Positions 9,376 to 42,004 of a stretch of DNA of 45,091 bases are shown piece after piece. The stretch is taken from IMG/VR virus record IMGVR_UViG_3300027742_000005, positions 1-45,091 of that record; one strand, given 5' to 3'. Numbering within the stretch: the first letter of the stretch is position 1; each line of letters opens with the position of its first letter. The notes beneath the pieces are model-generated. The model was given only the letters and a program-made list of their open reading frames with translations. It did no database searches and had not been told where the DNA came from. The DNA is from a virus. Made by a program: the position numbers and the translations under genes.

Positions 9376-11160
9376 TTAAATCTCTATACCGTGCGCTATA
9401 AATTGCTTATAGACGACATCGAATATTCTCTTCCCTGAATCCTCTAATACATCTTCATCTAATCTTAAAGCATTTATCTGTACTGCTCCTTCTCCAATAT
9501 TTATTTCGATATTATTCCCGGTCTTTAATTTACCTTCTTCAGTTACCACTTCTCTATCTTTTAATAAAGCTAATCCTTCTCCACCGGGAATAGGACTTCT
9601 GAATACTCCACCTTTATGTAATAATGGTATATTCGGGATATTAAATCCCCATACATTCCCACCAAAACCCGGTACCCAGTCAGGAATTTCTACTCGGAAT
9701 TTATTTAAGGCATTTATAATCCAATTTATAGCTTGAATAAATACATTGACAACACCTTTTAAAGCTCCGGTAATACCACCCCAAATATTCACCAATCTCT
9801 GAACAAAATATTCCCATATCGAAGCTCCATAATCACTTATAGATTCCCATATATTTATCAGGTAATCTTTAATTCCATCCCAGAGATTTTTTATCCAATC
9901 TCCAACTCCACCCCATATATTTTTCACTGAATCACTTACTCTTCTAAATGTAGCAGAAGCATAATCAACTATATTGGGAAATACATTCTTAAAATAATCA
10001 ACTACTTTCTTTACAGAATCTATTAATGCCTTTAAAGTCTTCTGGAAGAAAGCAGTTACTTTATCCCAATTTTTGTAGAGTAATACGAGAGCTGCAATAA
10101 GAGCTATGATTCCTATTACTATCCAGGTTATAGGATTTGCTAATAGAGCAGCAGTAAAAGCCCATGCACTCTGGGCACTGCTTATCATGGCAGGAATAAA
10201 ATTACCATGTAGAATTTTACCGAGAAGGCCTGAACCAACTGAAACTAATTTCATAGCAGGCCCAACCAGATATAAGGCAGGAGCAAATTTAGCAGCTTGT
10301 TCTACTGTACCCGCAAATTTAAATCCCAATTCTCCTACTGCATGCTGTAATTTCTGCATCGGTGTATAGGATTCAGCATGAATATCTGCATTCCTCTGGA
10401 TAACTTCCGAACTCTTTACAACCTCTGCATTATATTGATTGAAAGTATCTTCACTTATTCCCAGAGTTTCAAGCAAGGTATCCATGCTTCCTTCGGATTC
10501 TACAACTGCTTGCATAAATTCTGTCCTGGCAGTTCGAGCACTCATACCAAATTGCTTTTCAAGTATACCCAGAATGGCAGCACTCTGATTTACATTCATA
10601 TCCATTTCTCGTAAATCAGGTCCGCATCTATCTAAAAATTTCAAGAATTCACTAATTGAACCACTAGTATTTTCAGTAATATAACCGAAGGCAGCAAGAG
10701 CTTCCTTCTCATTCCCCAATTCAATACCCATTCCTCGTAATGATGTTCCCATTTTACCTAATTGAACGGCACTCTCTCCGGTTGCATCTCCAACTGTATC
10801 CCAGAATGTAGCATATTCTTTTAAGGCATCAGCACTTCTTAATCCTGCCTGCTTACCTAATTCCATTAAGTCCAATACATCTTTCAAAGGGAATGTAACA
10901 TTGGCGGTCTCAATGGCTAAAGTCCTGAATGCTTTTTCATTCATTCCTATCGCAGCTGCTATCTGCCTCGATTTCTCCAGCATGGGAGCCTGTTTTCTGG
11001 CAAACATCTCGATGGCAGTTGCTGCACCCGCAGCTGCCGCACCGTATTTTAGCCAATTCTTCTCGCAAAAACCAACAACTTTTTTATTATTCGCTCCCAG
11101 TTTGTTTATGACCGGAGAAGCTTTATCTATCGCATTTATTACAATATCAAGACCTGCCAT
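9376..11160 (-). CDS. Tail tape measure protein
   Basis: 594 aa directly after the chaperone pair. Helical N-terminal region, a hydrophobic/Gly-rich core (IVIGIIALIAALVLL) and W-rich repeats (NIWGGVGDWIKNLWDGIKDYLINIWESISDYGASIWEY). Confidence 0.85.
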   Translation of the reverse strand: MAGLDIVINAIDKASPVINKLGANNKKVVGFCEKNWLKYGAAAAGAATAIEMFARKQAPMLEKSRQIAAAIGMNEKAFRTLAIETANVTFPLKDVLDLMELGKQAGLRSADALKEYATFWDTVGDATGESAVQLGKMGTSLRGMGIELGNEKEALAAFGYITENTSGSISEFLKFLDRCGPDLREMDMNVNQSAAILGILEKQFGMSARTARTEFMQAVVESEGSMDTLLETLGISEDTFNQYNAEVVKSSEVIQRNADIHAESYTPMQKLQHAVGELGFKFAGTVEQAAKFAPALYLVGPAMKLVSVGSGLLGKILHGNFIPAMISSAQSAWAFTAALLANPITWIVIGIIALIAALVLLYKNWDKVTAFFQKTLKALIDSVKKVVDYFKNVFPNIVDYASATFRRVSDSVKNIWGGVGDWIKNLWDGIKDYLINIWESISDYGASIWEYFVQRLVNIWGGITGALKGVVNVFIQAINWIINALNKFRVEIPDWVPGFGGNVWGFNIPNIPLLHKGGVFRSPIPGGEGLALLKDREVVTEEGKLKTGNNIEINIGEGAVQINALRLDEDVLEDSGKRIFDVVYKQFIAHGIEI

Positions 11161-11824: not shown

Positions 11825-12829
11825 TTAACTTATGATATCTTCATCCAAATCATCATTATTATTATTAATAGTTGCTATCAAATCAGTATCGATTTCGGTT
11901 ACTCCATCATCTAAAGTTATTGTTTTCATTAAAGCAATACCAGCAAAGGCCTGTATTATCTCTGTCCTTCCTGAAGGTGGAGTTTTCAAATCTGTAAATA
12001 TGAATTTTGGTATTTTAATCTCCATACTTCCATAAGCTCCACTATCAATAGTAATAACCAATTCTTCATTGGTAGATAGATTCCCAGATATACCCCCGGA
12101 AGCACCCCAGAATTTTTCATATTCCGAACTATCTTCAAAATAGAGATTACCACTTATATTGATATCCCTTGCTCCTATCGGCATTCTACAAGGATGTCTA
12201 CTTCCAAATCCCTTTCCTGCTGCCACATCTGGATTATTAGTTATTGAGATAGTTATCCCTTTGAATTTACAGCTATAATTAGTTTCTCCTAAAGTTATAG
12301 TAGAATCTATAAAAGATAAAGGATATTCATCGAATAGCAATAAATCTGCTATTGCTTTTACTGCTCCTTTATAATCTCTGGCTGCAACTATATCAGCAGT
12401 TATAAATACATATTCACCTTCTATCTTTATCTCCAGACTATTTATGGTACATCCGGTAAATATATGCTCGAAATTATCCTTTCCGAGTCTAGTAGTAAAT
12501 GAAGGTAATACTAAATCTTCTACTCCGTAAATCTCATGAGTATTTGCTCCCTCTCCACCATCGGTAAATACATATTTACCCAATGCCCATTTCAAGATAT
12601 AAGCAATAGACCTTATATCTACCGGATACATTATATTCCCGGTAGGAGCATAAAATCCCGGCCTGATAATCTTTCTACCTCTATATAATCCGCCTTCAAA
12701 ATGCAAATTAGGGTCAGTAGGAACATCAAGGGTTGCACTACCTATATCAATATGAAATATAGCATCTGGTGGAGTACCAGGATTAAAACTATATTCTTCT
12801 GCCATTCCTGCATATCTGATTCTTCCCAT
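11825..12829 (-). CDS. Major tail (tube) protein, assigned by position
   Basis: Track start is TTG 12838; ATG 12829 has SD AAGGAG. 334 aa, directly upstream of the chaperone and TMP genes. Confidence 0.45.
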   Translation of the reverse strand: MGRIRYAGMAEEYSFNPGTPPDAIFHIDIGSATLDVPTDPNLHFEGGLYRGRKIIRPGFYAPTGNIMYPVDIRSIAYILKWALGKYVFTDGGEGANTHEIYGVEDLVLPSFTTRLGKDNFEHIFTGCTINSLEIKIEGEYVFITADIVAARDYKGAVKAIADLLLFDEYPLSFIDSTITLGETNYSCKFKGITISITNNPDVAAGKGFGSRHPCRMPIGARDINISGNLYFEDSSEYEKFWGASGGISGNLSTNEELVITIDSGAYGSMEIKIPKFIFTDLKTPPSGRTEIIQAFAGIALMKTITLDDGVTEIDTDLIATINNNNDDLDEDIIS

Positions 12830-12850
12830 TATAATCAACTCCTTTCTTTA

Positions 12851-13312
12851 TTATCTTTCTAATACATTAAAGGTAATTTTTATTACCGCGACAGCACTAT
12901 AATTATTTCCTGCTACATAAGCAGGATTAGATGGTTCGAATCTATCGCTCCTGGTATCTTGCACGAAAGTATTTAATCCGAGATCCCTGTCCTGCAATAT
13001 ATGATACCTGGCTTTAGCAGCCAGTTCATTAGCTTTTTTATATCCTTCTTCTGCATCATTGGAATAAAATACCGCTACCAGATTTATAGGCATTTCCCAA
13101 CTCTCCATAATGGTTGCAGGCGGATGAGTACAGATAGCTACATCAGGAAATATCCAGATACAGGGAGTTTTAGGAGTCTTGACTGACCTATCCCCCCGAT
13201 ATATTGCTTTTACGATATCAAGGTCTTCTCCTGTCTGTATCTTTGCTTCAAGTGTATTCTGGAGAGATGACATAATATCATCAATTGCTTCATCTAATAA
13301 TTTATTTTGCAC
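12851..13312 (-). CDS. Neck / tail-terminator-slot protein
   Basis: GTG 13312 with SD GAGAGG. 153 aa, between the HK97-gp10-like gene and the tube gene. Confidence 0.3.
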   Translation of the reverse strand: MQNKLLDEAIDDIMSSLQNTLEAKIQTGEDLDIVKAIYRGDRSVKTPKTPCIWIFPDVAICTHPPATIMESWEMPINLVAVFYSNDAEEGYKKANELAAKARYHILQDRDLGLNTFVQDTRSDRFEPSNPAYVAGNNYSAVAVIKITFNVLER

Positions 13313-13754
13313 TGGTATCTACCTCTCTCAATGCTCTTCTTATGAATTCAGGAACTCTCTTTTCCGCTCCTTTCATTGCTCTATCCGGATAAGGATTTGG
13401 TTTCATTCCTTGAACTTCTGCTCTTTTAGTAAATATCTCCATTCCTTGCCAGATAAAATGTAAGCATTTTTTAGTTACCGGTTCGATAATGATAGGTCTG
13501 CCTTCCGGACCATATACTCCTGTTCCGGTCGCAACTGCTAAGGCGTATTTAACTCCACTCTTAGCTTTATATCTGAAATCATTTTCCTTTGATAATTGCC
13601 AACTCCCTGCTAATCTACCATGGTCGACCGGACTCTCTTTCATTAAAAGACTCCATGCTTCTTCTGCTGTATATTTGAAAGCTAATTTACCGGCCTTCAT
13701 CGGTAATTTCATTATCATTGCCAATTTTTCTTTATCAAATTTAAAATTAATCAC
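13302..13754 (-). CDS. HK97 gp10-family neck / tail-completion protein
   Basis: GTG 13754. ESPVDHGRLAGSWQL and KYALAVATGTGVYGPEG match the VDTG.L..S / Y...E.GT signatures of the gp10 family. Confidence 0.6.
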   Translation of the reverse strand: MINFKFDKEKLAMIMKLPMKAGKLAFKYTAEEAWSLLMKESPVDHGRLAGSWQLSKENDFRYKAKSGVKYALAVATGTGVYGPEGRPIIIEPVTKKCLHFIWQGMEIFTKRAEVQGMKPNPYPDRAMKGAEKRVPEFIRRALREVDTSAK

Positions 13755-14616
13755 TGGTATCCACTCTCATTAATCTGAATTTAGCTTTAGCAGGAAAATT
13801 ATTCAATTCTTTTTGTATCTCCGAAGTCAATATCTGGTCCATGGCTACCTTTACGCTTAAATCATCAACTCTGATCACTGCACTCTCCCTTCTGCTGAAG
13901 GCCAGGGCAACCATATTTCCACACATCCTCATGGCTATATTATGTATTCCTTCTGGTATTTTTAGTATGGAGAATAGACCCAAATATATATCTGCTCCTG
14001 CTAATCCAGATACATGTTTTATTCCGATACTCTTTATCGAATTCAGAGTACTATCTCTACCCAGATACCTTTTGAATAATCTCCACTCATCCTCATCGAA
14101 TGCAGGCACAGTTAGAGTTTTTTTGATATTTACACATCCCTCATCTTCTGCTAATTCTATTTCTAATTCATCAATTCCTACATTAACAGAAGATTTGATA
14201 TAGAAATTTAATACCTTTCCTTCACTCAAATCCTGTTTATCACTATCAAGGTCTTTATGTGCCAGAATTATACTATCCATTATCCCGCTTCCTAGAGATA
14301 TCTTATTACTTGATATCTGCTCACCAGTAGGAATATTATCATCATCTTCATCTACATTTTCAACCAAGCTTATAGTAACTCCACTGGCATCTGCTTCCCA
14401 TTTCTCTTCGCAATATTCAACAGGAAATTCTTCTCCACTATCCAAATCTCTGATATAATTTCTCTTACGATTATTATTTATAATACTTGCTATTTCTCTT
14501 AACCATTTTTCAATAAGAGATTCGAGTGCAGGTTTACCGGATAAATCTAATTTCTCATAATCAACACCAGTATATTTAATTATATCTCCTACTGTACTAT
14601 AATAATCTTCAGCCAT
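13747..14616 (-). CDS. Head-tail adaptor-like protein (gp6-like N-terminus) with a large C-terminal extension
   Basis: 289 aa, SD AAGGAG. The N-terminus STVGDIIKYTGVDYEKLDL..LESLIEKWLREIASIINN looks like a connector helix bundle. It is the first virion gene after the sugar cassette. Confidence 0.4.
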   Translation of the reverse strand: MAEDYYSTVGDIIKYTGVDYEKLDLSGKPALESLIEKWLREIASIINNNRKRNYIRDLDSGEEFPVEYCEEKWEADASGVTISLVENVDEDDDNIPTGEQISSNKISLGSGIMDSIILAHKDLDSDKQDLSEGKVLNFYIKSSVNVGIDELEIELAEDEGCVNIKKTLTVPAFDEDEWRLFKRYLGRDSTLNSIKSIGIKHVSGLAGADIYLGLFSILKIPEGIHNIAMRMCGNMVALAFSRRESAVIRVDDLSVKVAMDQILTSEIQKELNNFPAKAKFRLMRVDTSD

Positions 14617-14621
14617 CTATA

Positions 14622-14879
14622 TCACTCCTTTGAAATAGAATGTGCATGTTCGGGATGAGCCATATTAATATGGGTATATAATCCTCTTTTCTTATCGAAT
14701 CTCTTTTTACAATAAGGACATGAATAGAAAACTTTTAATATTAAATTTCGACAGGCTTTCAATTCTTTGAATCCTGCATCATCAGTAAATACAGTTCTCT
14801 TTTTCTCTGCCTCGAAATAATGCTTTGCCCTGAAGATACCCTCACCCTTTCTATTAATTACCTCAATCTCGTATAACAT
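14622..14879 (-). CDS. Small protein with a classical C2H2 zinc finger
   Basis: 85 aa, SD AAGGAG. CPYCKKRFDKKRGLYTHINMAH fits C-x2-C-x12-H-x4-H, with the conserved Phe and Leu positions. Confidence 0.65.
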   Translation of the reverse strand: MLYEIEVINRKGEGIFRAKHYFEAEKKRTVFTDDAGFKELKACRNLILKVFYSCPYCKKRFDKKRGLYTHINMAHPEHAHSISKE

Positions 14880-14883
14880 TTTT

Positions 14884-16098
14884 TTACTCCTTTATATTTA
14901 TTTTCAGATGAACGTGTGCTTTGATTAATCTGAAAGCACTCTCATCTACTCGAAAGATTTCGGTTTCTTTATTCGGATAAAAAATATGATTTGCTCTTTC
15001 TATCAATATCTTACCTCTATTCTCGACTGTAATGAATTTAGGAAATGGAGTTTTACTAATTAGTCTAGGAATTATATATTTTTTGGGTTTATGTCCTAAA
15101 GCTACTTCGATTACTTTTCTAAATTTCTTTATATCTTTATTCATTACATTATTATTCCTCATTCTCTTAGTAGTCTTCAATTCTTTTAATCTCTCTGGAA
15201 TTTTCTTTAAGGTTTTCATCTCTAAATCATCGATTATTATTCCCCATTTTCCATCATAAATATTCATTCCTTTGCCACCTTGATATCCGATAGTAGGAAT
15301 TCCTGCTGCTAAGTAATCCCAGATCTTATTACCCATGCAAGTTTGAGTATAATCATAAGCACGTTTAGATACATTTATCTTGTTATAACTATGTAATCCT
15401 GCTGTATATTTACTCATTTCTTTTAATAATGCTTTATAAGATAAATTATCATAAGTGATACATCCTAATTCTCTATATTCCCTCAGTCTTCTCTGATTAT
15501 GGCTTGCTGAATATATATGTATTTTCCAACCCGCTTCTATAAATTTTTTGAATATCTCATGATAGCATCTATATCCATAAATGGAATTAGATTTATTCCA
15601 ATTTGCTACTACTCCACCTGCATATACTAAATGCAAACCCTTTAATTTCCTTAATGGAACAAAATCTAAATCTTTTCTTAATGGCCGGGTATGAATGATT
15701 TCATAATAAGGCATTTTCCAATCATATTTTTTTTTCATTTTTTCGTAATATTCAGCATGACCTCCACTGGTAAAGATTATTGCAGAAGCATTTCCTATCT
15801 TTTCTCTATCCCTTCTCTCAGTATGCCTATCTAATCCACGCCTCATGCTATTAATATCATGTTCGATTAATATATAAGGAATATTATATTTCATGGGGAT
15901 TTTATAATCTTCTTTTGCATCTCCACGTACTATCATTAAATCGGGTTTTTTTTCTTCGATATTCTTTTTTACAGCAGGAATATCATCTTTGATTATTTCT
16001 CCACCAAAATTATCTTGCATAAAACTGATATCTTTATAAGCAGTTCCTTCATACCATCTGGATACAAAATATATTATTTTTTTACCCTTTATTCTCAT
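14884..16098 (-). CDS. Glycosyltransferase, GT-B-like (family unassigned)
   Basis: 404 aa with two Rossmann-like halves. The C-terminal half (LVYAGGVV..IHIYSAS..NKIWDYLAAGIPTIGYQGG) resembles a GT-B donor-binding domain. Confidence 0.45.
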   Translation of the reverse strand: MRIKGKKIIYFVSRWYEGTAYKDISFMQDNFGGEIIKDDIPAVKKNIEEKKPDLMIVRGDAKEDYKIPMKYNIPYILIEHDINSMRRGLDRHTERRDREKIGNASAIIFTSGGHAEYYEKMKKKYDWKMPYYEIIHTRPLRKDLDFVPLRKLKGLHLVYAGGVVANWNKSNSIYGYRCYHEIFKKFIEAGWKIHIYSASHNQRRLREYRELGCITYDNLSYKALLKEMSKYTAGLHSYNKINVSKRAYDYTQTCMGNKIWDYLAAGIPTIGYQGGKGMNIYDGKWGIIIDDLEMKTLKKIPERLKELKTTKRMRNNNVMNKDIKKFRKVIEVALGHKPKKYIIPRLISKTPFPKFITVENRGKILIERANHIFYPNKETEIFRVDESAFRLIKAHVHLKINIKE

Positions 16099-16828
16099 CC
16101 TTCAATTCCTCTTTCTTTGATATTCCGAAATCAGCTAATATATTTTTAATATCATCTTTATCTTCTATCTCTTCCCATTGCTGCCAACTTCCGGGATGAA
16201 ATGTGGAAACAATATTCTTACCATGTACCGTATCCATATAATTAAATCCCGGAATTATTTCGTGTTTCCTTAATATTGCCCCACCATGACCTCTTTTCAA
16301 GTAATGTCTTTTACCTTTTGCATATTCTTCTGGCTTGTATATCAGAACATAAGATTGTGGTGATTTATAAAAAAAACTTGCTAATCTGCCCGAACTTATA
16401 TCATAGTTGTAACAATTCTGATTTATCAATACTTCTGTTTCTAATTTAGGAATATAATCATGCAATAAATTTATGAAATGCCTTTCCCACATATCATCAC
16501 TATCCACTCTAACTAAATATAGAAAATCATATCCTTTTGATAATTCATTTACTTTATTATCAAATTCTTCACTACTAATAATACTGATATTTTCTGGAAG
16601 TTCCCCCATTTCTTTTTTAACGAAGGTAATCGTTTCTCCTCTACATGTTAATAATAAATTAAATGATTGATTCATCTGTGCTATCATACTCCTCAAACAA
16701 TAATCTTTAAATAATTTTATCCTGAATCTAATCCAATCCTCATCCATCTCATTTCCTTTTCGCTCCATATTTGTAGTTGTCTGGAAATAAGTATTCAATC
16801 GCGATTTTATTATTATTTTTTTACTCAT
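16082..16828 (-). CDS. Glycosyltransferase, GT-A-like (putative rhamnosyl-transferase-type)
   Basis: 248 aa. FLYLVRVDSDDMWERHF provides an acidic DxD-type motif. RFRIKLFKDYCLRSMIAQMNQSF resembles the family N-terminus as I recall it. Confidence 0.45.
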   Translation of the reverse strand: MSKKIIIKSRLNTYFQTTTNMERKGNEMDEDWIRFRIKLFKDYCLRSMIAQMNQSFNLLLTCRGETITFVKKEMGELPENISIISSEEFDNKVNELSKGYDFLYLVRVDSDDMWERHFINLLHDYIPKLETEVLINQNCYNYDISSGRLASFFYKSPQSYVLIYKPEEYAKGKRHYLKRGHGGAILRKHEIIPGFNYMDTVHGKNIVSTFHPGSWQQWEEIEDKDDIKNILADFGISKKEELKDENKG

Positions 16829-16839
16829 AATCGTATTCC

Positions 16840-17790
16840 TTATAATTTATAATATTCTTTCATCCAATCAATCGTCCTTTTTATTCCTTCTCTAATATCA
16901 ACAGTAGATTTATGTTCTAATTCTTTAATTGATAAATCTATATTGACTCTCTTTTTTTTAGTAGTCAATTTTTCGCTATTTTCATAATGTATTAAATCCC
17001 TTTCTGCTCCTGTGTAATTCCAGATGATATCTGCTAATTCTTCAATGCTATAATATTCATTACTACCAATATTATAAATCCTGCCTGGTATAAAATTATC
17101 AGATATGTTTGCTATTGTCCGGGAACAATCATCAATATAGCTATTAGAACGATAATGACCTTTATATATTATTATTGGAAATTTTGATAATGCATGATAA
17201 CAGAATTTACATATGGCAGAACGGTATGGATGATAATATTCTCCCGGACCATAAGTATTAAATAATCTTACTATAATAGTTTCTGTCCCATACATAATCC
17301 GAGAATTTCTGATTTGCAATTCATTAGCCCATTTTGATATAGCATAATCATTCATCTGATTAATTACATATTTATCAGGTATATTTTCTTTCATAATACC
17401 CGCATAATCTCCGTATATTTCCGAACTTGAAAAGTGGACTAATTTAAATTTATATTTTTCCTGCAATCTGATTATATTCTTCAGGCCTATTAGATTACTT
17501 TTCCACATCTGTTCGTAATAATCTTCCCCATTCCACCTGCCAAATTCAGCTGCACAATTATAGATTAAATCAAATGGACCTACTTCGGTTATAATCCTTT
17601 CTATCTGTCTGTATTCTCCAATATCACATCTGGCATATTCCCAATCTTCATTACCCATTTTTTGTATGAAGCCAACTTCTCCAGCATGATGTAATAAATC
17701 TATTCCGAAAATATTATGTCCTCTTTGTTTCAATTCTTCTGTCAATTTTTGCCCTATAATACCCTCTGAACCAGTTATTAATATCTTCAT
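16840..17790 (-). CDS. NAD-dependent sugar epimerase/dehydratase (extended SDR; 4,6-dehydratase or UDP-glucuronate-decarboxylase type)
   Basis: Track start is TTG 17811; ATG 17790 overlaps the upstream stop (ATGA). Motifs: ILITGSEGIIGQKL (GxxGxxG), SSSEIYG, YAISKWANE (YxxxK), RLFNTYGPG. Confidence 0.8.
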   Translation of the reverse strand: MKILITGSEGIIGQKLTEELKQRGHNIFGIDLLHHAGEVGFIQKMGNEDWEYARCDIGEYRQIERIITEVGPFDLIYNCAAEFGRWNGEDYYEQMWKSNLIGLKNIIRLQEKYKFKLVHFSSSEIYGDYAGIMKENIPDKYVINQMNDYAISKWANELQIRNSRIMYGTETIIVRLFNTYGPGEYYHPYRSAICKFCYHALSKFPIIIYKGHYRSNSYIDDCSRTIANISDNFIPGRIYNIGSNEYYSIEELADIIWNYTGAERDLIHYENSEKLTTKKKRVNIDLSIKELEHKSTVDIREGIKRTIDWMKEYYKL

Positions 17791-18362
17791 TTTGTCTTTC
17801 TCCAAAAACAAGTTTTTATATAATCAGGAGGCCCATCCCATTCATCTTTATATAGAGGTTTAAGCCCATATTTTATTACAGTATCTTTTGTATTCTCTTC
17901 TGTTAATTTTGCCATTGCTATTGATTGCCAATCATGAGAAGCGAATACAGAATCCTTAGGTAATAATTTAATGAAATAATTAAAATCCCTTAATTTATTT
18001 CCATTATCAGAAAAGAATAAAATCGGGCTATCAATATATTTGTTCATCTCTTGAATAGAGTCTTTATGATAACAATCTCTATTAATGAATTTTATCCCTA
18101 GTAATTTGAAAAGTTTGGGTTCTTTAATCGATAATATATCATAAGTTAATAATGGTTTTAATCCTCTTTCATAACATTCTAATCCCAAAAATATGGATAA
18201 AGCTCCGCGCCCAGTTCCGATTTCGATTATCCCTTTTATCTGTTTATTATCATTCAAGATATCATCTATTACTTTATACATCCAATAAGCATGGCTTTGA
18301 CGAAATCCTAAAAAAGTTCCATACCATCTTTTATATTGATATCTTAATTCATCAGTTACCAT
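17787..18362 (-). CDS. Class I SAM-dependent methyltransferase (CmcI-like sugar O-methyltransferase fold)
   Basis: 191 aa. IKGIIEIGTGRGALSIFLG is SAM motif I. The overall layout resembles the cephalosporin-hydroxylase/CmcI family. Confidence 0.55.
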   Translation of the reverse strand: MVTDELRYQYKRWYGTFLGFRQSHAYWMYKVIDDILNDNKQIKGIIEIGTGRGALSIFLGLECYERGLKPLLTYDILSIKEPKLFKLLGIKFINRDCYHKDSIQEMNKYIDSPILFFSDNGNKLRDFNYFIKLLPKDSVFASHDWQSIAMAKLTEENTKDTVIKYGLKPLYKDEWDGPPDYIKTCFWRKTK

Positions 18363-18363
18363 T

Positions 18364-19131
18364 TTAATTATCCCTCATCTTCAAATAATGGAGATTCAAT
18401 TCCTTTGCCAAATCCACAAGAGGAATATTAATAGACATTTTCTTAGCTATATTACATAAAAATCCGATGTCTTTCGGTAAGCATTTACCCCCTGCTCCTC
18501 GATAACCATCTTTATTTGCTATCAGATGCCTTGCATTAATATTTTTATCCATTCCTATTATCTTATAGATATTATTATAATCAGCTTCTAAAGCATTACT
18601 CAAATCATATATCTCTTCTGCGAATACAACCTTTATAGTGGCTAAGGAATTCAAAACTAACTTTGCCAGTTCAGCTTCTACCGGCCTTACCTTTATAAAA
18701 TAATTACAGACTATAGCTTTACTCATTAATTTTAATAAATAAACGAAAGCTTCATTATTCTGTGTACCTATAATTACTTTATCCGGTTCTCTCATATCTT
18801 CGAGTGCCTTCTCTTCTATAAGGAATTCAGGCATAAATACTATTATTCTATTATGTTCCAGAATCAAAGAATCGGTTGTACCCGGTAATACTGTAGTCCG
18901 GAGAACAATTATAGCTTTTTTATTTTCTTTCACTACTCCTTTTACTACTTCTCTGATTAAACTCATATCTTTGCTTTTATCATTTATGCAGATAAAAATT
19001 ACATCTGCATCGGTTAATTCATCATTAAATCCTTTAACGGGGTCATATCTTTTTATGTCCTGAAATTTATCACTAAGTATTTGATATAAAGCATTACCTA
19101 TTATACCCAAACCAATGATACCTATATTCAT
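18364..19131 (-). CDS. UDP-glucose/GDP-mannose dehydrogenase-family protein lacking the C-terminal UDP-binding domain
   Basis: Motifs: MNIGIIGLGIIGNAL (GxGxxG), MPEFLIEEKALEDMREPDKVIIG, AELAKLVLNSLATIKVVFAEEI, GYRGAGGKCLPKD (catalytic-Cys motif, Cys217). Only 255 aa. Confidence 0.7.
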   Translation of the reverse strand: MNIGIIGLGIIGNALYQILSDKFQDIKRYDPVKGFNDELTDADVIFICINDKSKDMSLIREVVKGVVKENKKAIIVLRTTVLPGTTDSLILEHNRIIVFMPEFLIEEKALEDMREPDKVIIGTQNNEAFVYLLKLMSKAIVCNYFIKVRPVEAELAKLVLNSLATIKVVFAEEIYDLSNALEADYNNIYKIIGMDKNINARHLIANKDGYRGAGGKCLPKDIGFLCNIAKKMSINIPLVDLAKELNLHYLKMRDN

Positions 19132-19228
19132 TTTTTCGTCCTTTCGTTATTCATATATAAACTATAGAGTCAAAGTAAAATTTCTCCATTAAGGGTACTC
19201 TACGGCGTTATTCAGGCCTATATAGGAC

Positions 19229-19256
19229 AGGGAGAGCAAAATTTATTACTCCCCCT
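19229..19256 (-). terminator. Hairpin immediately downstream of the capsid gene (8-bp stem with one G-U pair, 12-nt loop), weak U-tract
   Basis: agggagag-N12-ctccccct on the plus strand. An adjacent 10-bp palindrome CCTATATAGG lies at 19217-19226. Confidence 0.4.
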
Positions 19257-19285
19257 ATCTATAATTACATCCTACATCTTAAATA

Positions 19286-20302
19286 TTAAGATACTGGATT
19301 TTCTTTCTCTATATAAGCGACTACAGCTGCATTCTCATCTTCGTAATCGGAATCACCTTCGACAGTAAGCACGAAATCAGTTCTATGCAGTTTAGCTTCT
19401 CTTTCTCTTTCCATTCCTACTTCGAGGAAGATTCCCCAGGCCATATTATCAGGATTTTCGAGCATGCATACAACTCCGGGTCCACCCAAAGCAGTTGTCT
19501 TTGCCCTCTCCAGCATAGGAACTCTTACAATCGGAATACCTTCAAAAGCGAGTGGAACTGCTTTAGTAGTAAAGGTATCACCCAGTGCAGTTTTTCTTGC
19601 TTTTAATAAAGTGCGCCATGCTTTTTCTACACTATAAACAACGTAGAATCTCCAATCAGTTCTACTTCCGAGATACTGTTTAGGAAGTGCATCAAGCATT
19701 GCTTCGAACATATTCTCTGGATAAGTAGCTCCCGCGGGGTCAAAATCCTTACTTGCTCCAACTCCATATACCGCATTAGCAGCCAATTTAATCCATCCAT
19801 CAGTCTTGCTCAATACATGGTCTTGAGCATATGACATGTCAGTATCTGCCAAGAGGAAGAATTCTTCGAGGTCCCTACCAGCCGCTTCTCCAAATAAAGC
19901 AATAAGAGTATCTTCGAATCCACCTTTCTCAATATTTTTCCTTAATGTTTCATCCCGAATAGATGCAATAGCTTGGAAATCCTCTGAATCTAAACGGTTA
20001 GTATTTATTGTAGGTTTGGCAAATTCTGATGTTTCTAATTCCCTGGTATTTCCACTTGCATCTTTTAAACTATCAAGTATTCTTCCGATAAATGCGATCC
20101 TATCAATATCAACTCTATGAGTTTCCATTTTGATATATCGAGCTTCGGGTACTACTACAGTCTTTTCTTGAACTACCCTCACAAATTTATCGAATTTAGT
20201 AGGTTGCAATATAGCTGTACCTAAATCGCTTACTTCCGTAATTCCACCTTTTAAAACATCATCTACTATTTTTAATAAATCTCTGTTACTATATGTTTTC
20301 AT
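19286..20302 (-). CDS. Major capsid protein (HK97-fold type, inferred)
   Basis: 338 aa, SD AAGGAAGG. Follows the protease-scaffold gene, is GC-enriched, and is followed by a strong hairpin. Confidence 0.7.
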   Translation of the reverse strand: MKTYSNRDLLKIVDDVLKGGITEVSDLGTAILQPTKFDKFVRVVQEKTVVVPEARYIKMETHRVDIDRIAFIGRILDSLKDASGNTRELETSEFAKPTINTNRLDSEDFQAIASIRDETLRKNIEKGGFEDTLIALFGEAAGRDLEEFFLLADTDMSYAQDHVLSKTDGWIKLAANAVYGVGASKDFDPAGATYPENMFEAMLDALPKQYLGSRTDWRFYVVYSVEKAWRTLLKARKTALGDTFTTKAVPLAFEGIPIVRVPMLERAKTTALGGPGVVCMLENPDNMAWGIFLEVGMEREREAKLHRTDFVLTVEGDSDYEDENAAVVAYIEKENPVS

Positions 20303-20331: not shown

Positions 20332-22155
20332 TTAATATCTTTTCTTTTTACTTCGACCCATTGCATCCCGATTATCCTCTTCTAATGCTTTTTTGGAATT
20401 TTCTGCTTCTTCTTCCAGAGTGGCATCTCCTTTTATAGCATTAGACTTGCCTTTTTTAACAAGTTTCTCGAGGCCTTCAACCTTTTCGGTAAGACCTTTT
20501 ATCAATTCATCATTAGAGATATCTTTCTTGTCCTTTTCCTCTTTCTCTTTTTTCTCTTTCTCTACCTTTTCCTTTTCTGCTTTAGCTTTTTCTGCTTCTT
20601 TTTCTTCCTCTGTTTTTTCTCCCTTCTCTAATGATTTATCGATTTTTTCTATCTGTTCAGCAATAGGTTTTAATTTCTCATCAATAGTTTTTTCAACTAA
20701 TTCTTTGACTTCTTCATCTTTCATTTCGATATCACCTTCCTTTTCTTTTTTGATTTTGGGTTCTGCCCTCTCCCCTTCGGCTTTTTTTATTAATTTACCT
20801 AAAGATTCCCATGCCTTTTTTAAATCTCCAAAAGTAGATTCTGATATTATTCTACCTTTCTTTTCAGTACCGTTAATCATATCTATCACCTTGCTTATTA
20901 TACTTTTTTTATCTACCTCTTTTTCCTTACTTTTAATAGAAAAGAATTTGGATTTTGGTACGCAGGCCTCATCTACAATACTTACTATTGGTACGAGCCA
21001 ATTATCCCCGAGGTCAGCTATTAAAGTCTTTTTTAAGGATGCAATTAATTCCTTACTTATATCTTTTCCTTTGTTCGCAGTTTCAGTTAATTGCTTTAAT
21101 GCAGTTTCTCTGATTCCCATGATAGAGAATCCGGTAAGTTCTCCACTATCAATCTTTTTCCATACTTCTTCTTTCTTTACTTTAGCACCCATGACCCAAG
21201 TTCCTTCTGGCAATAACATCTTCTTTCCGTATGCCTCAACTTCCCATTCCATTGGTAAGAGATAAGTCTCTATCGGTACCGCCACATTATTAAGTCCATG
21301 CATATAATCTATATTGCCATAATCTTCCATCCATTTATGAGCAACTCTCTCGACTTCCTCTCTAGTTAATATCTTTTCTCCTTTATCAAAATCATAATCG
21401 GGTTCACCCGGTACGAGTACAGCAGCGAATACTATTTTCTGTACATTATCTTTTAATACTATTGGTCCGGTTAATTCAGCTCCTTTACTTGCTCTTTTTT
21501 CTCCTGGCCATTTGCCTTCTGCTTGATAATGCAACCAGGCACATAGGGCTTCGGGGTCAGTTATCCCCGGTTTATCTGATAATGCATCTACGCACGCAGT
21601 AAAACTGCCAGCCCAACTTCCCCAAGTATCAATTATTGATTCTATCCCCTTTACAGTCTCCTTCAATTTCTCCACATTACTAAAATCAAAAGACTCCGAG
21701 AATAACCGTTTCTTCGCGTAAACTTCAGTTACTTCTTTCGGAGTCCCAAATGTGATTTCTCCTTCTTCATTCTTTGAATATAGAATTTCATAAGTACCAG
21801 TACCTTTATCATCACTCGCAATTATTGCATCTTCAAAAGTACATATTACCCAATAATCAGGATATATCATAGATAGACTTCCCCTAAGCTTTTCTTGTTT
21901 CTTCTCCAGACTATCTTTTACATCCCTATCCTTTTTCACATTCATAGGATTGCCTCCTTCCTCATTTATTTTTACCTTACCTTGCCACCCACTTGCCCTG
22001 ATAGCCCGGCCTTGAGCGGCGGCTTTATCTTTTGCTTTTTCTCTGGCACTTTCATTATTACAAGTATAATAATATTTCTTACCAGTACTTCCCCATCGTG
22101 CATAACATTTAGGTTCTTCCTTTTTATTACTATCATATCCTGTATGTACTGGCAT
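20332..22155 (-). CDS. Prohead protease (XkdF-like) fused to a K/E-rich scaffold-like coiled coil
   Basis: The central IVFAAVLVPGEPDYDFDKGEKILTREEVERVAHKWMEDYGNIDYMHG...GTWVMGAKVKKEEVWKKIDSGELTGFSIMG matches the XkdF-type serine protease family. The C-terminal ~170 aa is EKEK-rich. Confidence 0.65.
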   Translation of the reverse strand: MPVHTGYDSNKKEEPKCYARWGSTGKKYYYTCNNESAREKAKDKAAAQGRAIRASGWQGKVKINEEGGNPMNVKKDRDVKDSLEKKQEKLRGSLSMIYPDYWVICTFEDAIIASDDKGTGTYEILYSKNEEGEITFGTPKEVTEVYAKKRLFSESFDFSNVEKLKETVKGIESIIDTWGSWAGSFTACVDALSDKPGITDPEALCAWLHYQAEGKWPGEKRASKGAELTGPIVLKDNVQKIVFAAVLVPGEPDYDFDKGEKILTREEVERVAHKWMEDYGNIDYMHGLNNVAVPIETYLLPMEWEVEAYGKKMLLPEGTWVMGAKVKKEEVWKKIDSGELTGFSIMGIRETALKQLTETANKGKDISKELIASLKKTLIADLGDNWLVPIVSIVDEACVPKSKFFSIKSKEKEVDKKSIISKVIDMINGTEKKGRIISESTFGDLKKAWESLGKLIKKAEGERAEPKIKKEKEGDIEMKDEEVKELVEKTIDEKLKPIAEQIEKIDKSLEKGEKTEEEKEAEKAKAEKEKVEKEKKEKEEKDKKDISNDELIKGLTEKVEGLEKLVKKGKSNAIKGDATLEEEAENSKKALEEDNRDAMGRSKKKRY

Positions 22156-22428: not shown

Positions 22429-23355
22429 TTATACTCCTATCTTTACTAAATCTTCTTCATAAAAGAAATCTCTTCCGGTCGGTGCTTTAAATCCTTCTGG
22501 CATTAAGAAAGGTACTACCCTGCATCTACATTGAATCCATTCAGCTATATCTCCACTTGTATCGAGAGGATGCATTAATCCATTACTGAATGGTTCTCCT
22601 ACCTTTACTATCTGTCCATGTAGATATGTATGGTCTGCTAAATCTGCAGGGTCATTCCCTCTAACTCTATCATCTTGTGCAGTCCACCATTGATGATAAT
22701 CTACTCCCAATTCCTGCTCGGTCATAAATGTAGCTACATTCTGCGCTCCATTTATTTCAGTCCTCGCTACTCTACTTAATTCATAATCAAGCATTGAATC
22801 AAATGTACTATCAAGATTACTCGCGGCCTCAGCTATTCCTAAACCTTCTTCATAACTATCGGCAAGATTAGCCATTACATTATCCGTTATTCTGGCAAGC
22901 GTGGCATCAGAAGCTACAAAGGTTTTATCCTTAATCAATTTTAATATTTCTGGAGAGAATTCGCTAAATTCTACATCTGCTATTTTTATTATCACTCGGG
23001 GTCCCGAGCTTGTCCTTGATTTTTTAGTTTGCTTTTTGATTTCACGTATAGTTTCAGTCCTATGATAGCTTAAAGTCTCCTGTTTATTATCGAATAATGT
23101 ATTACCAAAATCCTCTTTTATGTCACTCAACCCTGATAATAGAGCTTTCCTCTCCATATCACTCGAAGGAACAGTATCTCTCTTCTTCAATTCATTCATT
23201 ATCTTTTTGAACTGCTTACTAAAGAGTTTTCTTAATTCCCTATTTAGTCTGCTCTCTTCCTCAATTATCTTCTTTGGTATCCCTTTGTATATTCCTAAGG
23301 AATTTCGCGTATGCTCTATCTCTATCAGCATCTTTAGGATAGCGTTTTCTAACAT
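22429..23355 (-). CDS. Head morphogenesis protein, SPP1 gp7 / Mu F family
   Basis: The C-terminal SRVARTEINGAQNVATF..YHQWWTAQDDRVRGNDPADLADHTYLHGQIV..IQCRCRVVPF is the family signature. ATG 23355 overlaps the portal gene by 95 nt, so the start is uncertain. Confidence 0.8.
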   Translation of the reverse strand: MLENAILKMLIEIEHTRNSLGIYKGIPKKIIEEESRLNRELRKLFSKQFKKIMNELKKRDTVPSSDMERKALLSGLSDIKEDFGNTLFDNKQETLSYHRTETIREIKKQTKKSRTSSGPRVIIKIADVEFSEFSPEILKLIKDKTFVASDATLARITDNVMANLADSYEEGLGIAEAASNLDSTFDSMLDYELSRVARTEINGAQNVATFMTEQELGVDYHQWWTAQDDRVRGNDPADLADHTYLHGQIVKVGEPFSNGLMHPLDTSGDIAEWIQCRCRVVPFLMPEGFKAPTGRDFFYEEDLVKIGV

Positions 23356-24805
23356 CTTCCATCAACACCTCGATTAATTTATTCTTCAGGCCTTCAAGTA
23401 TATTAACTAATTCTATCTCCGGTACAAAACTACCAGCATCTATTGCTTTACCACTAAGGTAATGCATATCCATAGCAGGATTATCTTCTACTGCTTTAAG
23501 CCCATATCTATTTCCTACATGAGCAATTCCTTGATTCGGGGTCATCATAGCATTTGTTATTAACTTGATACATCTATCAATCTCTTTATCCTCATCTTTA
23601 GTATCTATGCTTACCAATTTCCATATCCAATCTTTGATTTCAAGTGTAGGAAATACAAAGAAATTAATGAATTCTTCGTAGAGTTTCTGTTTAGGAAGTA
23701 TTACTGAATCATTATAAATTACAGTACTTTCCAATCCGAGATTCCCTGCTAATTGTCCGGTCTCATATATTCCCATTCTGTAAGGTGGAGTGGCATGTGC
23801 AGTAATGACTTCATTTCTATTATCAACTCTATATAATCTAAAACTTGCCTCTTTTATATCAGTAGAAATCGGTTTAATATCAATCTTGACTTCACCCAGT
23901 GAACCATCCCTTTTAGGAACTACCATAGTCATAACACTATGAGGATTCTGAGCCATAGCTTTAAATTTTTCTTTGATAGCAGTTTCTAATGGGGTCATCT
24001 TAGTTTTAGGGTCCTCTTTACCCGGTTCGAAATCTCCGGTAATGTAAACTATATATGCAGGTATACCATAATTCTTGAAGAAGGATATATTATAATCCCT
24101 TCTGGAGATATCCCCGGTTATAGCTCCGATCGCAGGAACGATATCAGGCACTCCATAAAAAGTACTTCGAGGATAGTAATTCATAAGCCAGTATATCTCA
24201 GTTGCCCTCTTACTTTTATCCAGAGATTTTTCTTTTAATTCTCTACCATCCTTTTTATCTACATCTTTCTCATATCCGAAATTCCTGAACCAGACTTTTT
24301 TATTATTCCATTTCTGGCAGAATTTATTACCTTGTTTGTGCATTCTTATAGTATATGCAGGTATATGAGTAATCAGACTTACCGGACCATTAAAATCATT
24401 ATTCTCTCTTACTACTTCCAGGCCTGAATATCCGTTAGCTTCATAATCTATACTCGACCTTCTTATGGTTTCTTCTATCGGCATATTCTGATTAGCAAAA
24501 AAATCATTTATCCTTTTCTTTTCTTCTTCACTCGGCTTGTCTACTTTGGATTCAAGTTCCCAGCCCTTCCCGGAAGTATCGTTCGATTTGGTCTTACAAG
24601 CCCTCATGTGATAGGTATTCATCTCCATCAACTTGGCCATGGTTACAGGTTCATATAAGGGTTCTACTAATCCGCTTTCTTTATATTCCTTAGCAAATAC
24701 TTCCTTCTCCAGTTGCTGACTCTTTTCCTCTCTTTGGTATTTTGCCAAGACATCCAAACTTACTACTTCACCTATATTAGTTACAATGCAAAATGGCTTA
24801 CTCAT
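23261..24805 (-). CDS. Portal protein
   Basis: 514 aa, SD AAGGAG, ATGA-coupled to the upstream gene. Lies between the terminase and the gp7-like gene. Core motif YYPRSTFYGVPDIVPAIGAITGD. Confidence 0.8.
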   Translation of the reverse strand: MSKPFCIVTNIGEVVSLDVLAKYQREEKSQQLEKEVFAKEYKESGLVEPLYEPVTMAKLMEMNTYHMRACKTKSNDTSGKGWELESKVDKPSEEEKKRINDFFANQNMPIEETIRRSSIDYEANGYSGLEVVRENNDFNGPVSLITHIPAYTIRMHKQGNKFCQKWNNKKVWFRNFGYEKDVDKKDGRELKEKSLDKSKRATEIYWLMNYYPRSTFYGVPDIVPAIGAITGDISRRDYNISFFKNYGIPAYIVYITGDFEPGKEDPKTKMTPLETAIKEKFKAMAQNPHSVMTMVVPKRDGSLGEVKIDIKPISTDIKEASFRLYRVDNRNEVITAHATPPYRMGIYETGQLAGNLGLESTVIYNDSVILPKQKLYEEFINFFVFPTLEIKDWIWKLVSIDTKDEDKEIDRCIKLITNAMMTPNQGIAHVGNRYGLKAVEDNPAMDMHYLSGKAIDAGSFVPEIELVNILEGLKNKLIEVLMEDVRKRYPKDADRDRAYAKFLRNIQRDTKEDN

Positions 24806-25344
24806 TTTTTATCATCTCCTTTATAAATAACAATAATTTTAGATTTCTTATTCATATCAAATCCTAAATCGAAAAATGCTCTATAGCTCATCTTATAATT
24901 ATTTTTACCAGATGGGTCATGCAAAGTAAATTCTGATTTCACGCTATTAAAACCTATTATAACCCTGCAATGGCTTTTTGTAATTGACATGCTATATTTC
25001 TGTACAATAATCAAAGGGATACACTGCCTCAAATATTCTTCTATCTCTTCTACCTTAATATAACAGAATTTAGATTCATATCCTAATTCTCTGGCATAAC
25101 CAACCATTTTGAATATATTGCTTGTTCCTTCTACCATTATTCTTCTGGCAATTTCTGCTTGAGTGATATTCTCTCCATAATATCTCAAAATCATTGCACC
25201 GGAAGCAGGCAAACACCAATCCTTTCCTTCTGCTTTTTCATAAGGAACGTTTAATAGAATTTCTGTTATATCCTGTTTAGCGGATTTTTTATATCTTGAT
25301 AGAAATATTATAAAAACTATTCCTAAAATTAAAAGAATCCACAT
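24802..25344 (-). CDS. Membrane-tethered papain-like cysteine peptidase (Peptidase_C39-like)
   Basis: N-terminal TM WILLILGIVFIIFL followed by RYKKSAK. DWCLPASGAMILRYYGENITQAEIA supplies the candidate catalytic Cys. KSHCRVIIGFNS..FTLHDPSG supplies the His and Asp. Confidence 0.6.
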   Translation of the reverse strand: MWILLILGIVFIIFLSRYKKSAKQDITEILLNVPYEKAEGKDWCLPASGAMILRYYGENITQAEIARRIMVEGTSNIFKMVGYARELGYESKFCYIKVEEIEEYLRQCIPLIIVQKYSMSITKSHCRVIIGFNSVKSEFTLHDPSGKNNYKMSYRAFFDLGFDMNKKSKIIVIYKGDDKK

Positions 25345-27374: not shown

Positions 27375-27840
27375 CACTTAAACCTTCCATTCCGGTTTTA
27401 TCTTTAGTTTCTATCTCTCCTTTAAATTGCATTAATAGTTTTGCAGGTTCTCCTAATAATGATAAATCAAGTTTAATCATCCTCTCAAGTGCCAGGAGTG
27501 CAGCATTATATTGTGCCATATTCTCAATCTTAATTTCTTTATTCCTGACTTTCTCTACTATGGTTGAAATGATAGAATTTATTATCTTCGTATTTATCTT
27601 AATGGTATTATGATATTCTGCTTTCTCCTCGATTATGGACTTGGTAATCCTTCTCTCTACTCCCTGCATTATCTCAGTATCACGTTTCTCTATCCGTTTT
27701 TTCCATTCGAATTCAGTTTTCCATTTTTCGATACTTCTCCTTGAAACTGAGAACTCATCAGCAACTAATTGTGAAGTTCTTTTATCTCCTAAATTATAAT
27801 AAAACTCAAATGCCCTCCTGTGTCTATCATTTTCTAACAT
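27283..27840 (-). CDS. terS: Terminase small subunit (HTH-containing), inferred
   Basis: 185 aa immediately upstream of terL, overlapping it by 92 nt. HTH-like TSQLVADEFSVSRRSIEKWKTEFEWKKR. Confidence 0.55.
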   Translation of the reverse strand: MLENDRHRRAFEFYYNLGDKRTSQLVADEFSVSRRSIEKWKTEFEWKKRIEKRDTEIMQGVERRITKSIIEEKAEYHNTIKINTKIINSIISTIVEKVRNKEIKIENMAQYNAALLALERMIKLDLSLLGEPAKLLMQFKGEIETKDKTGMEGLSDEELDKYIITLAKGTILQIPDREEKKGSKS

Positions 27841-41982: not shown

Positions 41983-42004
41983 GATATTATCCCCTTTTTT
42001 ATTT

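Follow-up and report, generated by a model that had tools for sequence, protein, structure and literature searches.

Positions 14884–19131 of the phage contig IMGVR_UViG_3300027742_000005 (IMG/VR) hold a cassette of five genes for sugar-active enzymes, set among the virion structural genes between those for the major capsid protein and a small zinc-finger protein. The window, by which we mean the whole stretch of DNA analyzed, is 45,091 nt long, and all positions refer to it. The same contig was found in two independent public assemblies; the public contig with these genes measures 45,133 bp, so that the window covers nearly all of it. All substantial open reading frames (ORFs) of the window, including every feature described here, lie on the minus strand, and Pfam and PHROG assignments showed genes arranged as in the late operon of a siphophage. 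The cassette comprises exactly five ORFs: a truncated UDP-glucose dehydrogenase (UGDH) homolog that we call mini-UGDH (18364–19131; 255 aa), an S-adenosylmethionine (SAM)-dependent methyltransferase (17787–18362; 191 aa), a short-chain dehydrogenase/reductase of the extended type (SDR; 16840–17790 and 316 aa from an ATG codon, or 16840–17811 and 323 aa from a TTG codon, public gene calls taking the ATG at 17790), a GT-A-like glycosyltransferase (16082–16828; 248 aa), and a GT-B glycosyltransferase (14884–16098; 404 aa).

An earlier note on this DNA, made from its letters alone, had described five co-directional, partly translationally coupled genes at this place, preceded by the capsid gene and a hairpin, and our data bear this out. 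The genes are packed at distances of +1, −25 (−4 with the ATG start of the SDR), +11, and −17 nt; such packing with partial overlap is consistent with translational coupling. Their G+C content is 0.285–0.306 vs. 0.32–0.39 in the flanking structural genes. The capsid gene (19286–20302; 338 aa; phrog_1623, E = 1e-67; tblastn matches to XkdG-type capsid proteins) lies 154 nt upstream, and the spacer contains a hairpin with an 18-bp stem at 19221–19263 (minimum free energy of −37.7 kcal/mol and z = −2.87 for the fold of 19132–19285). As the hairpin has no U-tract and was not called by a terminator scan, it may be an attenuator or stabilizer rather than a clean terminator. Downstream, the note had placed the head–tail adaptor gene directly after the cassette. 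This was not the case: a gene for an 85-aa C2H2 zinc-finger protein (14622–14879; zf-C2H2, E = 3e-5) follows the GT-B gene after 4 nt, and only then come the adaptor-position gene and Neck1.

Capsid-based searches of viral and metagenomic contigs gave sets of 7, 80, and 80 loci, many of them on the same contigs, and approximately 270 relatives were detected (108 viral, 159 metagenomic). One relative, whose capsid protein is 61% identical, carries all five genes in the same order, with amino acid identities of 47, 57, 72, 70, and 53%, and dozens of metagenomic homologs were found for each of the 404-, 191-, and 248-aa proteins. The conserved order together with the many homologs indicates that these are not chance ORFs. 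Across the relatives, the slot between the capsid and zinc-finger genes is either empty or filled with one of at least five unrelated glyco-cassettes, and we found the same slot in more than 45 relatives. In the closest isolates, Drs3 and psiM100, and in many metagenomic relatives, the zinc-finger and/or neck genes follow the capsid gene directly. The position was thus fixed, and the random positioning in relatives expected of a generic host O-antigen moron, which the earlier note had raised, was not seen.

The contents of the slot are exchangeable. The first architecture is a two-gene core of mini-UGDH and GT-B with optional methyltransferase, GT-A-like, and SDR genes, of which the window shows the fullest form. 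In the second, a 914-aa fusion protein unites an FkbM methyltransferase, a GT2, and a TagF-like domain. The third combines a methyltransferase (MT11), a cytidylyltransferase, LicD, and a 570-aa GT1/GT8 protein; the fourth, a TOD1/MUCI70-type glycosyltransferase, a TupA-like ATP-grasp protein, and a methyltransferase (MT24); and the fifth is a lone GT2-like domain fused to the zinc-finger protein. A protein of approximately 140–150 aa without a Pfam match opens the cytidylyltransferase/LicD-type and related cassettes (L005 1416–1877 and L007 11079–11507; also L006, L050, L053, L059, L061, and L074), and may be a further component of those glycosylation systems.

The presence of a cassette covaries with the last residue of two virion proteins. 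In the combined viral and metagenomic sets, counted as distinct sequences or tails, the capsid protein ended in Ser or Thr in 45/45 cases with a cassette and in 1/28 without (Fisher p = 4e-19, with kinship among the phages ignored), and the tail tube protein in 13/13 with and 3/13 without. Four control proteins, counted in the viral-contig set only, did not follow this pattern: the zinc-finger protein ended in Ser/Thr in 0/21 cases with and 0/4 without a cassette, the adaptor-position protein in 1/20 and 0/12, Neck1 in 2/17 and 3/11, and p153, a 153-aa protein encoded between Neck1 and the tail tube, in 0/14 and 1/6. Next to a cassette of any type, the capsid ends in Ser (once in Thr) after a variable tail, for example ...NPVS, ...TPGS, ...EPAS, ...SNES, or ...TILS. 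Where no cassette is present, the last capsid residue is D, E, G, A, K, N, P, V, Y, R, or another. Only the last residue is invariant in the capsid and tube tails of cassette-bearing phages; the preceding residues vary. In the window, the capsid ends in ...EKENPVS (Ser338, codon 19289–19291) and the tail tube protein (11825–12838; PF18906 Phage_tube_2) in ...DLDEDIIS (codon 11828–11830).

When the last 15 alignment columns were left out, a neighbor-joining tree of 61 capsid sequences showed cassette-bearing lineages interleaved with cassette-less ones. The cassette state required at least five parsimony changes, and it disagreed with the terminal residue in 1/61 taxa. The tube gene is at a distance of four genes from the slot; hence, its terminal Ser cannot be put down to hitch-hiking with a recombination junction. 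The rule also had predictive value. Locus L094 has a Ser-ending capsid and tube and a 4.1-kb gap that matched no reference protein; the terminal Ser predicted a cassette in this gap, and Pfam confirmed it by giving a glycosyltransferase, an ATP-grasp protein, and a methyltransferase. L145/L150 were considered as loci with a Ser-ending capsid and no cassette, and were rejected as such when a GT2-like domain was found fused to their zinc-finger protein. The covariation shows that the cassette is functionally linked to the capsid and tube tails; it does not show the chemistry. Among the cassette-less relatives, a group from bioreactor and sludge metagenomes (L153–L163, e.g. L155 6894–8165) has capsid tails ending in ...PAA, and its capsid matches extend over approximately 1,260 nt for approximately 328 query residues, which implies a capsid insertion of approximately 90 aa.

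The enzymes are soluble: none of six proteins contains a predicted transmembrane segment, as none reaches a Kyte–Doolittle (19) score of 1.6, and the cassette encodes no flippase, polymerase, or polyprenyl-phosphate transferase. From motifs, the earlier note had called a Ugd-family dehydrogenase, a CmcI-like methyltransferase, an extended SDR of the decarboxylase type, and a GT-A-like and a GT-B-like transferase. Domain, fold, and homolog evidence placed all five in sugar-active families, and the first of these calls has to be qualified.

The GT-B protein had no Pfam match, and single-sequence searches of the Protein Data Bank (PDB) with this protein, the GT-A-like protein, and the methyltransferase returned nothing. 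Its AlphaFold2 (AF2) model, however, had a mean predicted local distance difference test (pLDDT) score of 92.7 and showed two Rossmann-like domains with a cleft, plus a separate C-terminal domain of approximately 50 aa. The top Foldseek matches of this model in the PDB were GtfC (4w6q) and Gtf3 (3qkw/3rhz), with E-values of 4e-10 to 6e-9 and a probability of 1.00, at 11–15% identity and template modeling (TM) scores of 0.5–0.6; many GT4 enzymes matched as well. Gtf3 and GtfC were also the sole PDB sequence matches of a profile of the GT-B family (E = 0.008–0.05), and their PDB entries describe a role in the glycosylation of serine-rich proteins. Among 128 homologs, some bear PF26337, PF13439, or PF13579, and others are fused to mini-UGDH (P0110) or to methyltransferase domains (P0095). 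Foldseek against viral models gave generic GT-B matches only, and neither tblastn of the GT-B protein against deposited phages nor a comparison of the region with deposited phage DNA yielded a match. Because the minimal cassettes contain no transferase besides GT-B, it is probably the initiating, protein-directed enzyme.

The C-terminal domain of the GT-B protein, termed ZN (approximately 47 aa, beta-rich, residues ~356–400, 14899–15033), is homologous to the N-terminal half of the downstream zinc-finger protein, which consists of a ZN domain and a zinc finger. In the AF2 model it folds apart, after a low-confidence linker at residues 345–350. A hidden Markov model built solely from 53 small zinc-finger proteins matched 40 of 800 large ORFs from related loci (E = 1e-4 to 1e-14), and in every cassette examined, across all five architectures, the match fell on one glycosyltransferase-bearing protein. 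The domain is mostly C-terminal; it is N-terminal in the TOD1-type glycosyltransferase and lies in the interior of a 706-aa protein. The zinc-finger protein is also present, directly after the capsid gene, in many relatives that have no cassette, and is fused to a GT2-like domain in L145/L150 and L090. ZN-bearing zinc-finger proteins or fusions lie, for example, at L004 8497–8766, L005 5096–5428, and L145 7489–8418. Our reading is that ZN serves for docking, guiding the initiating transferase to its acceptor or to an intermediate of assembly.

Mini-UGDH belongs to the UDP-glucose/GDP-mannose dehydrogenase family, and the Ugd call of the earlier note stands for its NAD-binding and central domains (PF03721, E = 1e-14; PF00984, E = 9e-17). 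It resembles Ugd, TuaD, and AglM (PDB 3vtf, 1dli) in its GxGxxG motif (IGLGIIG), its central dimerization domain, and its catalytic Thr, Glu/Glu, Lys/Asn, and Cys/Asp motifs; aligned to 3vtf, it keeps TTV, PEFLIE (PEFLxE), KxxxN (ELAKLVLN), and the GGKCLPKD (GGxCxPKD) motif cited in the note. It differs from them in lacking the entire UDP-binding C-terminal domain and approximately 35 residues of the N-terminal domain, which is shorter than the profile by that length. The UDP-binding domain PF03720 is absent from mini-UGDH and from the 48 other window proteins scanned with Pfam, and the TIGR03026 score of 126.6 bits lies under the cut-off of 189.8. The truncated form is not a decayed gene, since its family is large and uniform in size: in an exhaustive search, the best 150 cluster representatives were nearly all 240–290 aa long. 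Natural fusions join mini-UGDH to GT2, SDR epimerase, sugar-phosphate nucleotidyltransferase, APS kinase, and the GT-B family of the cassette. Among the relatives whose neighborhoods were examined, distant members adjoin SDR and GT4-like genes or sit in phage-like contigs. Mini-UGDH occurs in most GT-B-type cassettes, including the minimal two-gene form. One homolog, P0249 (601 aa, 48% identity), carries a LAGLIDADG intein inserted after approximately residue 225, near the catalytic GGxC motif.

The SDR (PF01370, E = 2e-36) has the motifs GxxGxxG (GSEGIIG), SSE, and YAISK, giving the Ser/Tyr/Lys triad. Its closest solved relative is Mth373 of Methanothermobacter thermautotrophicus (PDB 9AR1/8W3U), which matches over the full length with E = 1e-94; human UXS1 matches with E of approximately 1e-19, and no NCBIfam equivalog cut-off was reached. 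Equivalents of the Mth373 signature residues Arg75, Glu114, Asn171, and Lys275 are conserved (R in EFGRW, E in SSE, N in LFNT, and K in TTKKK), whereas the substrate pocket differs (PVNC to LFNT, EKYSPYKGF to EYYHPYRSA, and HKRII to HYRSN). By homology, the SDR is thus a putative UDP-glucuronate decarboxylase/UDP-xylose synthase (EC 4.1.1.35). The authors of the Mth373 structure named the enzyme UDP-xylose synthase, EC 4.1.1.35, from a crystal holding UDP-xylose, and could not separate enzymatic from radiation-induced decarboxylation (PMC12820599); when that paper was searched for assay terms, none turned up. Many relatives have cassettes of mini-UGDH and GT-B alone, or with the methyltransferase or GT-A-like gene added, which makes the SDR an accessory module. 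These results weaken the route from UDP-glucose via UDP-glucuronic acid (UDP-GlcA) to UDP-pentose that the earlier note had proposed as the core logic: the family call of the SDR holds, but mini-UGDH lacks the UDP-binding domain, the SDR is accessory, and the Mth373 assignment itself comes from a crystal.

In every relative with an SDR gene, the GT-A-like gene follows it. The GT-A-like protein matches PF11316 (Rhamno_transf, 'putative rhamnosyl transferase') with 27.9 bits, above the 23-bit Pfam cut-off (E = 2e-6); the majority of its 52 homologs carry PF11316 too. Within its RVDSDD motif, R107, S110, D111, and D112 are invariant in 30 homologs (R-x-x-S-D-D). A profile of the family matched the PDB weakly and only at the glycosyltransferase GalT1 (5hea, E = 0.02). 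From these matches, the 248-aa protein is a probable chain-extending transferase. The methyltransferase had only a weak, below-threshold Pfam match. Its AF2 model (pLDDT 93.7) shows a class-I SAM-dependent, Rossmann-like fold, with the sugar O-methyltransferase MeT1 (6g80, E = 2e-6) as the top Foldseek match and CmcI (2bm8) at a TM-score (TMq) of 0.69. SAM motif I reads EIGTGRG, with E47, G49, and G53 invariant, and 2 of 64 homologs are labeled YrrM-like O-methyltransferase by the Joint Genome Institute (JGI). The modeled fold makes the 191-aa protein a probable sugar O-methyltransferase.

Glycosylation of phage virions is already known as a kind of system. Two papers that cite Freeman et al. 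2023 (Cell Host Microbe 31:1216) report that the capsid and tail tube of the mycobacteriophages Che8 and Corndog are glycosylated by phage glycosyltransferases, and name Che8 gp108–110, an O-methyltransferase and three glycosyltransferases including gp38 in Corndog, and Myrna (PMC12363180, PMC11600133). The likeness to the window extends to soluble, phage-encoded glycosyltransferases, the O-methyltransferase of Corndog, and the capsid and tube as targets, which in the window are proposed ones. In Corndog, too, the structural region contains the methyltransferase and glycosyltransferase genes, immediately upstream of those for the protease and capsid. When we translated the Che8 genes, the capsid protein gp6 ended in ...NKTGS and the major tail protein gp11 in ...YSDGS. 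In Corndog, gp41 (at the capsid position) ended in ...PLVGS and gp49 (at the major-tail position) in ...IKGDS. These proteins thus end in Ser, as do the capsid (...NPVS) and tube (...DIIS) of the window. The enzymes themselves, however, showed no homology to Che8 gp108–110 or Corndog gp35–38 in any pair (blastp E > 0.005; hhalign probability < 6%), and the likeness is functional and probably convergent. The window cassette moreover adds nucleotide-sugar enzymes (mini-UGDH and SDR), has a glycosyltransferase with a ZN domain, and occupies a hypervariable slot of at least five architectures, in an uncultured, non-actinobacterial clade of low G+C content.

Other known systems share single features with the cassette. 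In the Gtf3/GtfC pathway, an O-glycan is built stepwise on protein Ser prior to export or assembly. This O-glycosylation of serine-rich repeat adhesins of streptococci and lactobacilli (GtfA/B, Gtf3/GtfC) supplies the best matches of the GT-B protein and likewise uses soluble cytoplasmic enzymes. Its acceptors are long Ser-rich repeats, in contrast to the single C-terminal residues proposed here, and the window has no accessory Sec system. Chlorovirus PBCV-1 glycosylates its own capsid in the cytoplasm, independently of host machinery, with virus-encoded glycosyltransferases (such as the multidomain A064R with a methyltransferase domain) and nucleotide-sugar enzymes; its glycans include xylose and O-methylated sugars. 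It is a eukaryotic giant virus with atypical N-linked Asn glycans, and there is neither evidence of homology nor a C-terminal acceptor rule. Gtr-type serotype-converting cassettes are phage-borne glycosyltransferase genes with atypical G+C content too. They comprise a flippase, a bactoprenol-linked glycosyltransferase, and a serotype-specific membrane glycosyltransferase and lie near the integration module, whereas the cassette proteins are all soluble and their genes occupy a fixed slot of the structural operon.

The reading that we favor, and consider reasonably probable, is that the cassette O-glycosylates, in the cytoplasm, the Ser with which the capsid and tail tube subunits end. The earlier note had offered virion glycosylation and late remodeling of host surface glycans as alternatives; the fixed slot, the covariation, and the Ser ends of the mycobacteriophage proteins favor the virion. 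The place of the genes in the late structural operon, the solubility of the enzymes, and the likeness of GT-B to Gtf3/GtfC count for our reading as well. The capsid and tube are the two most abundant virion proteins, and they are exactly those that covary with the cassette. We infer an acceptor residue, an order of steps, a set of sugars, and a benefit. Expressed late, together with the structural genes, the enzymes would modify the hydroxyl of the last Ser of the capsid and tube with a glycan that is short, O-linked, and in part methylated. The Gtf3-like GT-B would start the glycan on the acceptor tail, docked by its ZN domain at the acceptor or at an intermediate of assembly. Mini-UGDH would then supply or create a uronic acid: it may oxidize a UDP-hexose despite the missing domain, act in complex with GT-B, or oxidize the sugar after transfer. 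The Mth373-like SDR would turn UDP-GlcA into a UDP-pentose, which the GT-A-like enzyme would attach as a second sugar, and the CmcI/MeT1-like methyltransferase would cap the glycan by O-methylation. The natural fusions of mini-UGDH with the GT-B family, GT2, SDR, and nucleotidyltransferase support the linkage of these parts. The phage may benefit from surface masking, altered adhesion, or particle stability.

Several points weigh against this reading. The glycan is predicted from genes, and there is no cultured isolate. The covariation was not formally corrected for phylogeny, the neighbor-joining tree is weakly resolved at depth, and exceptions exist: the cassette-less capsid of L093 ends in Ser, and 3 of the 13 cassette-less tube tails end in Ser/Thr. 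The substrate of mini-UGDH is uncertain, given that the domain that canonical UGDHs need for the UDP-sugar is missing from its sequence. The ZN domain could partly be a scar of recombination or duplication rather than a docking module, which is conceivable because in most cassettes it ends the last glycosyltransferase and abuts the zinc-finger gene. The mycobacteriophage parallel holds by analogy only, since the enzymes have no detectable homology; in the study of Freeman et al., the mycobacteriophage glycans reportedly sit at the C-terminus.

Three other readings were weighed against glycosylation of the terminal Ser. The cassette may be a moron that remodels host surface glycans late in infection (wall polysaccharide, a teichoic-acid-like polymer, or capsule), blocking superinfection or re-adsorption of progeny, with the site in the operon giving late expression only. 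Alternative cassettes hold enzymes of the teichoic-acid type that are typical of cell-wall polymer pathways (cytidylyltransferase, LicD, TagF-like, and TupA-like ATP-grasp), the G+C content of the cassette lies below that of its flanks, as in acquired morons, and the closest solved relative of the SDR comes from a host cell-envelope glycan cluster. Yet this reading leaves unexplained that terminal Ser/Thr tracks the cassette on the capsid and tube, whereas four other structural proteins show no such link. No membrane protein, flippase, or polymerase is found, the slot is fixed across many lineages rather than placed at random, and in each cassette one glycosyltransferase carries, as a fusion, a domain that a conserved phage protein also has. 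We therefore regard host remodeling as unlikely. That the cassette modifies the phage DNA with sugars is very improbable. The GT-B fold is common to DNA glucosyltransferases, and those of T4, for example, are GT-B enzymes that decorate modified bases and thereby evade restriction; the phage also has a DUF5131 protein (29799–30545; E = 1e-35) and an HNH endonuclease (41383–42033). The Pfam overview of 48 window proteins, however, revealed no base-modifying enzyme, be it a hydroxymethylase, a thymidylate-synthase-like protein, or another; the cassette is part of the structural and not the replication module, its top structural matches are protein or small-molecule glycosyltransferases rather than DNA glucosyltransferases, and the covariation of protein C-termini would find no explanation.

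Virion or assembly proteins might instead be glycosylated elsewhere, on internal Ser/Thr residues, on fibers, or on the adaptor-position protein, with the terminal Ser serving as a docking or recognition element. The limit of the covariation, which proves a functional link and not chemistry, leaves room for this, and the adaptor-position protein has approximately 290 aa in the GT-B-type clade vs. 137–157 aa elsewhere, so that structural proteins other than the capsid and tube differ between the clades as well. We hold it to be quite unlikely, as the last residue alone is invariant while its neighbors vary, the conserved residue bears a hydroxyl group (Ser, sometimes Thr) as expected of an O-glycan acceptor, and the same terminal Ser is found in the mycobacteriophage proteins reported to be glycosylated. 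A bolder extension of terminal-Ser glycosylation, which we put forward only tentatively, is that tailed phages share a convergent 'C-terminal serine code': the last residue of the capsid and tube would be the O-glycan acceptor, and the cassettes would be swappable, like virion serotype loci. In this extension, the docking domain ZN would have been taken from a zinc-finger morphogenesis protein, and mini-UGDH would oxidize a protein-bound sugar or act only in complex with the transferase. We know of no described case of such chemistry.

Literature searches found no earlier description of the cassette, the clade, or the terminal-Ser rule, which is not proof of absence; a paper on a Bathyarchaeia virus had no bearing on them. 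To our knowledge, glycosylation of phage particles has been demonstrated for few actinobacteriophages only, and Freeman et al. reportedly saw little evidence of it elsewhere. What is new here is the set of non-homologous enzymes, the nucleotide-sugar genes including the mini-UGDH family, the shared domain, the hypervariable slot, and a sequence rule that can be searched for in genomes. If terminal-Ser glycosylation is right, the virions of a large uncultured clade of environmental phages bear glycans of at least five different chemistries, and the enzymes that make them are unrelated to those of mycobacteriophages. The rule, a capsid and tube ending in Ser/Thr plus a glycosyltransferase gene in the structural module, could be searched across all phage genomes, and would bear on phage adsorption, aggregation, stability, recognition by immune systems or predators, and therapeutic phage engineering. 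Two uncharacterized protein families, mini-UGDH and the ZN domain, emerge as well.

The best matches of the capsid in phage databases were Methanobacterium virus Drs3 (36.5%) and psiM100/psiM2, and TerL (25935–27377) is only 23–25% identical to that of any deposited phage. A methanogen host, suggested by the capsid matches and by the SDR relative from Methanothermobacter, was rejected as the preferred one, as the window encodes two murein hydrolase types: an M15 endolysin (Peptidase_M15_3; 3169–3618; 149 aa; Pfam E = 9e-14; phrog_894, E = 3e-20) and a 3D domain (PF06725, E = 9e-10). These domains indicate a murein-containing bacterium as the host. The archaeal TATA motif TTTAWATA occurred 29 times vs. 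30 expected, and scans for sigma-70 promoters and terminators remained at background level. The GT-B profile run on a genome collection gave only partial Firmicutes matches of approximately 30% identity, with no provirus and no host assignment. Homologs in metagenome-assembled genome bins (Nealsonbacteria, Bacteroidota, and Ignavibacteria) were discarded as a host clue, being probably binning noise.

The remaining late genes follow the siphophage order. Upstream of the capsid gene lie TerL, the portal gene (23261–24805), a MuF-like gene (22429–23355), and an XkdF-type protease/scaffold gene (20332–22155). Between the terminase and portal genes, an unusual place, sits a gene for a 180-aa papain-like cysteine peptidase (24802–25344; Peptidase_C39_2, E = 1e-14; Peptidase_C70, E = 3e-11). 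In the relatives L012 (5246–6478) and L013 (5120–6478), an ADP-ribosyltransferase toxin domain (PF03496) is joined to the MuF-like head protein; the MuF-like protein of the window does not have this domain. Downstream of the zinc-finger gene, the adaptor-position gene and the Neck1/tail-completion gene (13302–13754; phrog_5) are followed by p153, the tail tube gene, a chaperone gene between the tube and tape measure genes, the tape measure gene (9376–11160), and the distal tail genes. A Gp80 fiber-like protein is encoded at 883–1677 (PF23140, E = 4e-57), and an 852-aa protein with a weak SMP-30/gluconolactonase-like repeat at 42465–45023. The candidate adaptor-position protein (13747–14616; 289 aa) matches phrog_27112, a family with no known function, at residues 221–276 (E = 4e-14). 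Its length is approximately 250–290 aa alongside mini-UGDH/GT-B cassettes and 137–157 aa with other or no cassettes (short forms compared: L004 8750–9223 and L005 5406–5819). Only the C-terminal ~60 residues of the long form, those covered by phrog_27112, match the short form, and approximately 200 N-terminal residues are extra.

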